This document shows, piece after piece, positions 1-1,620 of a stretch of 43,578 nt of DNA. The first letter of the stretch is position 1. Each line of letters begins with the position of its first letter. The notes under the pieces were generated by a model. That model did not search any database. It was not told where the DNA came from and worked only from the letters and a program-made list of their open reading frames with translations. The translations under genes were made by a program, and so were the position numbers. Origin of the DNA: Promethearchaeota archaeon (GTDB lineage: Archaea > Asgardarchaeota > Lokiarchaeia > Sigyniarchaeales > SOKP01); NCBI GenBank assembly GCA_016840165.1, contig JAEOSU010000100.1:1-43578 (forward strand), read 5' to 3'.

Positions 1-607
1 CACTTTCACGTTGCTTGTCGATTCTAAATGCTTTCTCGGATACAGTTTTGCTTATTGCATCACCGGTAGATTTAAAATCGGGACGAAGTTTCATGCGCTG
101 CTGCTCACTTTCTCGTAGCTTTTCTTGCATGAAGGCTTTCTCTCCAACTAATTTTTCAATGGCTTTACCAGCGGTCTCTAAATCGGGTTTGATTTCCAAT
201 AATTGAGATTCTTGCTCTTTCTTCTTTTCCATCATAAAAGCTTTATCGCTGACAGCTTTGCTAATAGCTTCACTTATTTTTTCCTTATTTGGTTTTATTT
301 TTAATCTTTGAATATCACTTTCTCTTTTCTTATCGATAATAAAAGCTTTTTCGTCAACAGATTTGCTGATTACCTCACCAGTTTTTCGAATATCGGGCTT
401 CAAATCCATTCTTTGATAATCCTCTTCGCGTCGTTTTTCCCTTATAAATGCTTTATTTTCAATTGATTTTTCGATTATTACGCCTTTTTCTTCAATTTTA
501 GGTTTTAATGTGATTCTTTCCATATCTTTTTCTCTGAGCTTTTCTCTTTGAAAACTCTTCTTAGTTATAAGGTCAATGATTAATTCCTGACTTTGTTTAA
601 AAGCTTT
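1..607 (-). repeat. Coding tandem repeat, 105 nt / 35 aa, five complete units (first degenerate) plus a partial unit
   Basis: Units: PKIEEKGVIIEKSIENKAFIREKRREEDYQRMDLK / PDIRKTGEVISKSVDEKAFIIDKKRESDIQRLKIK / PNKEKISEAISKAVSDKAFMMEKKREQESQLLEIK / PDLETAGKAIEKLVGEKAFMQEKLRESEQQRMKLR / PDFKSTGDAISKTVSEKAFRIDKQRES..., plus a degenerate first unit at 607-503. Confidence 0.9.
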
Positions 608-745
608 TTTTCTATCCTCCTCATGTTTTTTCAAATATTCTGCTCTTTCTTCTTTTTCTTTTTTGTAAAGTTCATCAACGATTTTCTTTTCTTTCTCAAT
701 CTCCTCTGGAGTCAATGGTTTTTCATTCTCTTCCAATTTCCTCAC
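1..745 (-). CDS. Charged helical protein with 35-aa tandem repeats (3' end runs off the left edge; missing from the ORF track)
   Basis: Manual translation is open from GTG 745 (or TTG 736, preceded by GTGAGG) to the edge: MEENEKPLTPEEIEKEKK...; the K[A/S]F motif recurs every 105 nt (~555, 450, 345, 240, 135, 30). Confidence 0.9.
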   Translation of the reverse strand, partial: MRKLEENEKPLTPEEIEKEKKIVDELYKKEKEERAEYLKKHEEDRKKAFKQSQELIIDLITKKSFQREKLREKDMERITLKPKIEEKGVIIEKSIENKAFIREKRREEDYQRMDLKPDIRKTGEVISKSVDEKAFIIDKKRESDIQRLKIKPNKEKISEAISKAVSDKAFMMEKKKEQESQLLEIKPDLETAGKAIEKLVGEKAFMQEKLRESEQQRMKLRPDFKSTGDAISKTVSEKAFRIDKQRES

Positions 746-876
746 TTTTGGTAATTAAAATGATTGTTTTTAAATATAATATTAAAATTTGTATTTAATA
801 ATTTATTTATGAGTTTTGGCAATTGTTTAATAACAAATTTATTGACTATTTTAGAAAAGCCTATTTTTTATGCTAT

Positions 877-1620
877 TTATTTAATAGGAAGAGGTTTAGT
901 TAATTCGTCTGAAAAAGTATCCATTAAACTAAGTAGCGTCAATTTCATGGATAGCATTTCTAAAACTTCGATTTTAAGGATGTGATACCTTTTTGAATTA
1001 TTTGAAATGCCATATTTGGCAACTAAAAAATCATAGTATTCAATTAATTCTTCTCTACATTCCTCTTGATTTTCTAGAATAATTTCACTAGTACGTAGCC
1101 AATTATCTATATCTATTTTGATGGTTATTTCAGTATCATCATTAAGAGAATATCTGACTTCCGTTTCCTTTATTTTTTTAAGATTTTCAAGATATTTAGA
1201 ATCTTGATACATTGGTTTAAGTAATAGCCCTAAATTAATGATTAAAGGCTGAATCTGTAATCTGTCTAAGGAATCAGATAATAACCTTAATAAATGTCGC
1301 TTTTGATTTAATTGAGCATAATCAATATAATTCTGGATAAAGCGCATTAAAGAGTTTTTAATTAATAAATCATTGAAATTGCTAATATTATCGGTTTTCA
1401 TTTGAATAGTTGATTCAATGCATTCATAAACAGACTCCATAAAAAGCTCAACATCCCGAAACATTGAGAAATTACGAATGAAAAGTAATATCTTACCCAA
1501 AATTTCTATTTTTATATCCTCTAAATTAAAAAATGAGTCTATAGTTTGTGGTAATTCAAATTTGTCATCCGGAATGGATAAAAATTGTTGTATCTCTAGG
1601 TATTTTGATTTAAGACTCAT
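877..1620 (-). CDS. Hypothetical helical protein, 247 aa
   Basis: Long ORF, co-oriented with neighbours; TATA-like TTATTAA about 25 nt upstream; no recognised motif. Confidence 0.8.
   Translation of the reverse strand: MSLKSKYLEIQQFLSIPDDKFELPQTIDSFFNLEDIKIEILGKILLFIRNFSMFRDVELFMESVYECIESTIQMKTDNISNFNDLLIKNSLMRFIQNYIDYAQLNQKRHLLRLLSDSLDRLQIQPLIINLGLLLKPMYQDSKYLENLKKIKETEVRYSLNDDTEITIKIDIDNWLRTSEIILENQEECREELIEYYDFLVAKYGISNNSKRYHILKIEVLEMLSMKLTLLSLMDTFSDELTKPLPIK

Follow-up and report, generated by a model that had tools for sequence, protein, structure and literature searches.

The window analysed here comprises the first 43,578 bases of contig JAEOSU010000100.1 (C95) from a Promethearchaeota archaeon, whose assembly amounts to 3.6 Mb in 105 contigs with 31.6% G+C. 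Within window positions 1-745 there is a single long frame; it lies on the minus strand (745 to 2) and continues beyond the first base of the window, where the contig begins as well. It encodes the first part of a repeat protein that consists of tandem 35-residue units, is conserved in one family of Loki-type Asgard archaea and may, as we tentatively propose, serve as a multivalent rod. The remainder of the gene is found at the start of another contig of the assembly (G000:C81, locus L001). The parts of the gene are as follows:

2..745, minus strand: 5' part of the coding sequence, with 248 codons from a GTG or 245 from the likelier TTG; runs off the contig
C81 2-388, plus strand: 3' part of the coding sequence; ends at a stop codon
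509..745, minus strand: charged N-terminal head, residues 1-79 counted from the GTG, with 20 invariant columns among 21 orthologues
509-613, minus strand: degenerate repeat formed by the last 35 head residues, with KSF instead of KAF
404..508, minus strand: repeat 1 (35 residues), 69 bits to the repeat hidden Markov model (HMM), in register
299..403, minus strand: repeat 2 (35 residues), 72 bits to the repeat HMM, with a positional orthologue in most species
194..298, minus strand: repeat 3 (35 residues), 65 bits to the repeat HMM
89..193, minus strand: repeat 4 (35 residues), 71 bits to the repeat HMM
2..88, minus strand: repeat 5, which ends after 29 residues at the contig edge
1..127, minus strand: first 127 nucleotides (nt) of a 186-nt collapsed assembly node, whose other 59 nt lie at C81 69-127

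The four full repeats of the window served as seed for the repeat HMM, which also finds a weak repeat match in the head, at residues 46-79. The repeats of the window are 34-66% identical to each other in pairwise comparison. Comparing the protein with itself at a lag of 35 residues gives 46% identity versus 8.9 ± 2.2% in 2000 shuffles (maximum 16%); the 35-residue periodicity is far above chance. Tandem Repeats Finder saw no DNA-level repeat in the window gene. An earlier note on this stretch had described tandem 35-residue units running off the window, which these data bear out with four full units and a fifth, partial one. It had also called the units exact; this is true of the period, which is exactly 35, and not of the sequences. 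The consensus that it gave is correct, with a proline 14 residues ahead of position 17. Comparison of the window frame with eight orthologues yields 493, 318, and 1061 differences at codon positions 1, 2, and 3, respectively, and at this level of comparison the gene is shown to be genuine and under purifying selection. The window part of the protein has an acidic start (MEENEK) and lacks cysteine. The protein is shown to be of cytoplasmic type, in that neither a signal peptide nor a membrane segment is apparent in its sequence.

To define the unit, we used 119 repeats from 12 orthologues, all of which align in the same register without any indel. The spacing between K[ASGV][FY] motifs is exactly 35 residues in 283 of 296 cases, across genera down to about 41% identity, and the 35-residue period, as read from these alignments, is under constraint. 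The unit consensus is [LI]-K-P-D-[IFL]-x-K-[TA]-[GS]-E-A-I-[SE]-K-[ST]-[IV]-x-E-K-A-F-x-x-[ED]-K-[QK]-R-E-x-D-x-x-R-[ML]-x. Among the 119 repeats, conservation is strongest for I12 and K19 (119 each), F21 (117), P3 and A20 (111 each), K25 (108), and E28 (107), and the conserved core is E18-K19-A20-F21, with Y in two repeats. Position 17, by contrast, is variable (D 25, G 23, A 21, E 19, S 14). The nebulin-like S[DE]xxF motif that the earlier note had read in the units is therefore not what is preserved: serine occupies position 17 in only 14 of the 119 repeats, and the conserved motif is EKAF.

Charged residues account for 47% of the repeat residues (E, K, and R 40%, D 7%), with a net charge of about +1 per repeat and 2.6% glycine. 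At each of positions 1, 5, 11, 12, 16, 20, and 21, at least 90% of the 119 repeats carry an apolar residue, and positions 24-33 contain none. Hydrophobicity along the unit has no dominant harmonic at 3.5 or 3.6 residues; the 3.5-residue value (0.08) is among the weakest of 17 harmonics, compared with 0.23 at 3.89 residues. The mean hydrophobic moment is 0.17-0.30 and the mean hydrophobicity -0.06 to -0.58 on the Eisenberg scale. Opposite charges form i/i+3 and i/i+4 pairs (E10-K14-E18, E24-R27, R27-D30-R33, and E28-K32).

Structure prediction with AlphaFold2 was carried out for a 456-residue orthologue (21 alignment rows) and for four repeats (111 rows). The former model consists entirely of helices with breaks at several K-P-D sites (mean predicted local distance difference test score (pLDDT) 65.7, predicted template modelling score (pTM) 0.19), and its head is a long helix with a pLDDT of 80-90. 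The latter contains helices at residues 3-35, 38-70, and 75-139 (pLDDT 73, pTM 0.23). Thus, each unit is predicted, with moderate confidence, to form one helix of about 33 residues that is closed by a K-P-D break, without a compact fold. The earlier note had named a compact solenoid as an outcome that would speak against it, and neither model gives one; both predict one helix per unit and a proline break. If straight, the chain would extend over roughly 55-60 nm, as a rod or a jointed chain. A homodimer prediction with two copies of residues 1-219 scored 0.00; it was run without controls, and the partner's own fold is uncertain. A Foldseek search of the PDB with the four-repeat model (pTM 0.23) gave no match, and a feature search of the ESM Atlas gave no usable match.

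The gene is split in the assembly. A tblastn search of the assembly located the same repeats at the start of C81 (L001 2-388), followed by a truncated unit, a K/E-rich tail, and the stop codon. At its outward end, C95 shares exactly 68 nt with the start of C81. Elsewhere in the assembly, contig ends overlap by 127 nt in all 30 strongest cases, which is the word length of the assembler. An overlap of 68 instead of 127 nt therefore places both ends within one repeated stretch of 127 + 127 - 68 = 186 nt. Contigs from public runs agree with this arithmetic. In two runs (X1 and X2), a 186-nt contig spans window positions 127-1 and continues into C81, at a depth of 27 in X1, where flanking contigs have 12-16, and of 34.3 in X2, where the flanks are more scattered; a third run has an equivalent contig of 218 nt at a depth of 36.4 versus about 16. 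In addition, a 189-nt contig of single depth opens with the last 30 nt of the 186-nt stretch, closes with its first 30, and differs from C95 at window positions 128, 131, and 134. This contig links the end of the node to its start and so describes a loop of 186 + 189 - 60 = 315 nt, or three repeats, that is traversed once. The sequence of the loop could be read apart from its middle 84 nt. Contig depth and the assembly graph both point to a 315-nt duplication of three repeats that was collapsed during assembly.

Simply joining C95 to C81 would give a protein of 354 residues. With the collapsed loop, the real protein therefore has about 459 residues and ten full repeats, seven of them assembled and three collapsed. 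From the graph, its coding sequence is predicted at about 1.38 kb (459 codons counted from the GTG), in which the 186-nt stretch is present twice at a distance of 315 nt. The closest orthologue (456 residues, complete at L003 1501-2868, 76% identical) carries the same duplication, and its repeats 4-5 and 7-8 are 83-86% identical. The protein comprises a conserved head of 79 residues that is predicted as helical, about ten modules of 35 residues, a truncated module, and a K/E tail. We also compared the gene order across the genus and its sister genera (reg181, a DUF362 gene, up247, the repeat gene, the convergent dn166, dn158, a zinc-ribbon open reading frame (ORF), membrane ORFs, and a radical-SAM-like gene; the labels reg181, up247, dn166, and dn158 give ORF lengths in amino acids). 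At the level of synteny, this conserved order confirms that the C95 and C81 ends are adjacent in the genome.

The repeat protein was found in 112 of the 151 sampled genomes of the order. Its own taxonomic family accounts for most of them, with 108 of 131 genomes, compared with three of 19 in the other families of the order. The repeat family is thus conserved in one family of Promethearchaeia (Loki-type Asgard archaea) and rare elsewhere in the order. Genera g15 (none of seven genomes, with completeness up to 98%) and g22 (none of two) gave no match to the repeat protein, and neither did 13 of the 14 genomes of family f2. Many of the matches in genomes stop at contig edges. An exhaustive search with the family profile found only 63 matches, mostly fragments, among 1.84 billion representative proteins. 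A word-indexed search with the 456-residue orthologue came back empty as K/E-rich words swamped the candidates, and is not informative on family size.

Full-length proteins mostly have about 440-495 residues. Repeats 1, 2, and 10 have positional orthologues in many species, and the middle repeats turn over by block duplication. Among the homologues examined, the number of modules ranges from none to 11 or more. Distant relatives include small proteins that combine the same head with one to three units, a form of 139 residues (P0012) in which the head runs straight into the terminal truncated unit, and forms with longer units that lack the proline. Judging from these relatives, the array appears to have arisen in this lineage by expansion of the tail of a small, older Asgard protein.

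Several sequence elements surround the start of the gene and the region upstream:

734..736, minus strand: likeliest start codon, TTG (codon 4 counted from the GTG)
740..745, minus strand: invariant GTGAG(G/A), an alternative GTG start or, as we infer, a Shine-Dalgarno-like element near the TTG
767..810, minus strand: 44-nt block, near-invariant genus-wide in an alignment of 10 upstream regions, which ends in a TATA-like TATTATATTTAAAAA

Codon 4 is TTG in 45 of 51 loci and ATG in the other six, and never another leucine codon. The upstream GTG is present in all 51 loci and is retained even where an in-frame stop comes after it. Two species of the genus (L016 4251-4259 and L022 3049-3057) carry TAA as the third codon after this GTG, and the gene there must therefore start at the TTG. 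Thus, the start of the window gene is most likely the TTG at 736-734, and GTGAGG is probably a ribosome-binding element. In other genera, single in-frame TAA codons also occur inside the profile match. The 44-nt block occurs once in the window and is kept in species that lack the upstream gene. Since the block persists where that gene is missing, the repeat gene most likely has a promoter of its own, and the block is the probable TATA/BRE promoter (TATA box and B recognition element) of the repeat gene itself; its preservation suggests a tightly kept promoter or regulator site. The block is more conserved than the repeat gene. Short contigs from public runs pile up on window positions 763-805 and probably come from related strains.

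About 130 nt upstream of the repeat gene lies the co-directional up247 (window 877-1620, minus strand, 247 residues), for which Pfam gave no family match. Of 37 related loci, 31 retain it; in several species it is missing, and the DUF362 gene abuts the repeat gene instead. On the other side, dn166 (L001 398-898 of G000:C81, minus strand, 166 residues) is convergent with the repeat gene across a 10-nt gap. Its position is kept family-wide and beside the distant homologue P0002, and it has a weak, sub-threshold match to Fuz_longin_1 (E 0.019); it may be an Asgard longin/roadblock-type protein. Because the whole region is syntenic, these neighbours carry little weight as functional clues. Genes of the metallo-beta-lactamase fold (about 210 residues, 52% identical) adjoin two distant homologues (L070 3607-4233 and L023 2867-3508). 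We rejected this association as a clue, as the orthologue in the window's own genome (C30, 128229-128882) has no related gene alongside. Antisense frames of up to 331 residues lie opposite the repeat gene (L013 3386-4378 minus, L021 3406-4137 minus, and window 3-206 plus) and could be miscalled as genes. We rejected them as by-products of AAA/GAA-rich codons; the codon-position differences fix the minus strand.

Pfam and NCBIfam provided nothing meaningful for the repeat protein apart from a match to Entericidin EcnA/B (PF08085), which is found at E<=10 in 16 of 21 orthologues and reaches 35.1 summed bits in the closest orthologue, compared with a Pfam cut-off of 23.3. The overlap covers only profile positions 8-19 of 20 and corresponds to a 12-residue motif, D-I-x3-G-x2-I-S-K/R, that recurs in each unit. 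Entericidins are bacterial lipoproteins of about 45 residues with a signal peptide and lipobox, unlike the repeat protein with its 350-490 residues and acidic start. We therefore rejected this identity as a motif artefact multiplied by the repeats rather than kinship; the match is a trap for automatic annotation. PHROGs gave one marginal match (E 8e-4), to a protein of unknown function; PADLOC returned no match. Beyond its own family, the profile matches only TPR proteins, weakly and in register, at E-values of 1.6e-10 to about 1e-4; some of them are built of 35-residue units. The strongest of these non-family matches, P0040 and P0052, are TPR-type proteins that share an N-terminal domain, and by hand count the units of P0040 have 35 residues instead of 34.

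We tentatively favour a model in which the protein is a multivalent rod or adaptor, each helix of which turns the same face towards a periodic partner. Each module would show the same face (I12, K19-A20-F21, K25, R27-E28, D30, and R33) at a fixed spacing, and successive modules would grip successive, equally spaced sites of the partner, most plausibly a cytoskeletal filament. The same residues, many of them charged, are kept in all modules, as would be expected if each module contacted an equivalent surface. In ordinary solenoid scaffolds, exposed residues vary between repeats. On geometry alone, Lokiactin would be the best-fitting candidate partner. The rise of its filament is 27.9 Å per subunit, i.e., 55.8 Å along one strand (PMC9834061), and a 33-residue helix with its linker spans about 52-56 Å. 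By this analogy, the protein would be a functional analogue of nebulin or tropomyosin-type side-binders that arose independently. This more specific proposal, a Lokiactin side-binder with one 35-residue helix per actin subunit and an origin independent of nebulin and tropomyosin, is unlikely in our estimate. The organism does encode actins, as the earlier note had expected, with four actin-family genes on C77, C54, C15, and C4. Those on C77 (24293-25405) and C54 are near-canonical actins (442 and 428 bits to PF00022, respectively), and the other two are more diverged. Actin-family matches typically number about four per genome in the window's own family versus one to three in sister families.

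A number of observations weigh against a rod that binds a filament, and against actin as its partner in particular. All 151 sampled genomes of the order have actin, and only 112 of them the repeat protein. The earlier note had suggested checking the distribution of the protein against that of actin, and the repeat protein turns out to be far more narrowly distributed, with g15, g22, and 13 of 14 genomes of f2 having actin without a repeat match. Actin paralogue counts do not follow the presence of the repeat gene, genera without it having as many, and the actin genes are unlinked to it, being on other contigs. The agreement between 35 residues and 55 Å is a numerical argument only, and the conserved charge pairs might do no more than stabilise the helix. 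Confidence in the models is low to moderate, so that "extended" may just mean "not solved", and profile and structure-database sequence searches found no homology to any filament-binding family. Moreover, distant homologues lack the proline and by hand count have other units, of about 37 residues in G030 (in a 295-residue protein) and in P0026, and of about 40 in P0036. Since such units have about 37-40 residues and some forms have few or no modules, the wider family does not share a fixed ruler length.

Two other readings liken the units to known repeat families. As regards nebulin, which the earlier note had invoked, the layout stands and the kinship does not. Similar to the repeats of nebulin, nebulette, LASP, and N-RAP, the units are tandem, about 35 residues long, and composed of one helix and one proline each; the array has no globular domain inside it and hints at a super-repeat (three units here), and the unit length suits the ~55-Å spacing of the subunits in an actin strand. 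However, comparison with the nebulin profile PF00880, as the note had proposed, detected no kinship. PF00880 is absent at E<=10 from the Pfam matches listed for the two pieces of the window protein and for the closest orthologue, and it is not one of the 25 families matched by the largest numbers of the 21 orthologues. When the whole genome was scanned in six frames at the same threshold, a single chance match came up, at an unrelated place on C4. Given the missing match and a conserved core of EKAF instead of SDxxY(K), we rejected nebulin kinship. The array also differs in its size, with about ten units versus tens to hundreds in nebulin, and Pfam finds no SH3 or other end module; the repeat protein is archaeal, restricted to one family within a small Asgard clade, and apparently grew from a protein with one to three units. 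A true but very diverged nebulin-repeat homologue, for which one could cite the equal unit length, the single proline per unit, and an aromatic residue 18 residues after it, is thus scarcely credible. A compact helical-repeat scaffold, either a diverged TPR/PPR-like solenoid or a series of three-helix bundles of 105 residues that bind protein or nucleic acid, finds more in its favour. The period resembles those of TPR (34 residues) and PPR (35 residues), a hydrophobic-K/N-P-D/N loop ends the unit, and positions 5, 8/9, and 12 reproduce the apolar, small, apolar pattern of helix A. Small residues occupy positions 9 (G/S), 11 (A), and 20 (A), and apolar residues face several sides between positions 11 and 23. 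In addition to the in-register TPR matches, hhalign against one TPR protein gave a probability of 50% (E 1.6e-4, in register), and a designer PPR with 35-residue units appeared at E 0.004 in a sequence search of the PDB. Identity at lag 105 (44%) exceeds that at lag 70 (39%), and duplications occur in blocks of three units. On the other hand, matches of repeats on repeats inflate E-values, the repeat-only profile found nothing in the PDB at E<1, and no TPR or PPR family is among the Pfam matches listed. The helix-B core (A, Y, A, L) is replaced, aligning with Q26, D30, R33, and M34, and both AlphaFold2 models (pTM 0.19 and 0.23) show one straight, unbroken helix per unit without packing, not a hairpin. 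We consider a scaffold of this type unlikely. The claim of the earlier note that the units have no TPR/PPR core stands, though weak in-register matches to 35-residue TPR/PPR proteins exist; a distant TPR/PPR-like origin is conceivable, and the defining hairpin is not supported.

Three further explanations assign the helices other roles. The repeats could form a free-standing charged single helix or polyampholyte without a periodic partner, such as a spacer, an entropic bristle, or a hydrophilin/LEA-like protectant, and would then be conserved for helix propensity and solubility. The 47% of charged residues and the net charge of about +1 per repeat are compatible with this, as are the low to moderate model confidence and a module number that varies from none to 11 or more. 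The second half of the unit (E-K-Q-R-E-x-D-x-x-R) resembles an ER/K-type single helix, and similar to the single alpha-helix (SAH) domains of myosins and caldesmon, the units are rich in E, K, and R, have opposite-charge pairs at i/i+4, and are predicted as isolated helices. Unlike in SAH domains, however, only 47% of residues are charged (E, K, and R only 40%, short of what defines an ER/K helix), and a strict 35-residue repeat with a proline break holds invariant apolar residues (I12/F21). The seven apolar positions and the near-invariant F21 are foreign to ER/K helices and LEA 11-mers, no LEA family is among the Pfam matches listed, glycine is low at 2.6%, and a mere spacer would not need a strict period across genera. 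We regard this role as rather unlikely. A self-assembling rod, which would pair as a coiled coil or build its own filament in the manner of intermediate filaments or crescentin, appears distinctly improbable: the 35-residue period amounts to five heptads, the model shows a long helix for the head (pLDDT 80-90), and the apolar positions 1, 5, 12, 16, 23, and 34 form one stripe on the helix, but the 3.5-residue harmonic is weak, half of the unit has no apolar core residue, the continuous heptad pattern of apolar a/d positions typical of canonical coiled coils is lacking, and a proline recurs every 35 residues. Very improbable, finally, is an array of amphipathic helices at the membrane surface that, like apolipoprotein A-I, coats or shapes the membrane of long cell protrusions. 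The tandem, proline-separated helices with conserved charges recall apolipoprotein A-I arrays, and the first third of the unit fits the Entericidin amphipathic-helix motif in 16 of 21 orthologues. That match spans only 12 residues, however, and the period is 35 instead of 11 or 22, with no such Pfam match listed. Moreover, surface-seeking helices show a higher moment and hydrophobicity than the repeat units with their 0.17-0.30 and -0.06 to -0.58.

This analysis newly shows that the gene is split and that a 315-nt duplication within it was collapsed, points to TTG as the likeliest start, with conserved elements upstream of it, and exposes the Entericidin match as an artefact. Also new are the TPR/PPR signal in register with the units and an explicit comparison with the distribution of actin. 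The repeat gene breaks short-read assemblies, as it did in the assembly of JAEOSU010000100.1. Should the protein bind no filament, the family would still be useful as a natural, indel-free array of predicted isolated helices. Asgard archaea build long actin-supported protrusions, and equal single-helix modules that are lineage-specific and match the spacing of actin make the repeat protein a concrete and cheaply testable candidate for lining a filament. The Asgard actin regulators discussed so far are profilins and gelsolins only (2026 study, PMC13716822), and in the literature searched we found no paper that links Asgard archaea with a nebulin-like protein. If actin binding is true, the "one helix per subunit" solution would have arisen twice, and as a side-binder of Lokiactin, the repeat protein would be the first filament-lining or stabilising protein of the Asgard cytoskeleton beyond profilins and gelsolins.

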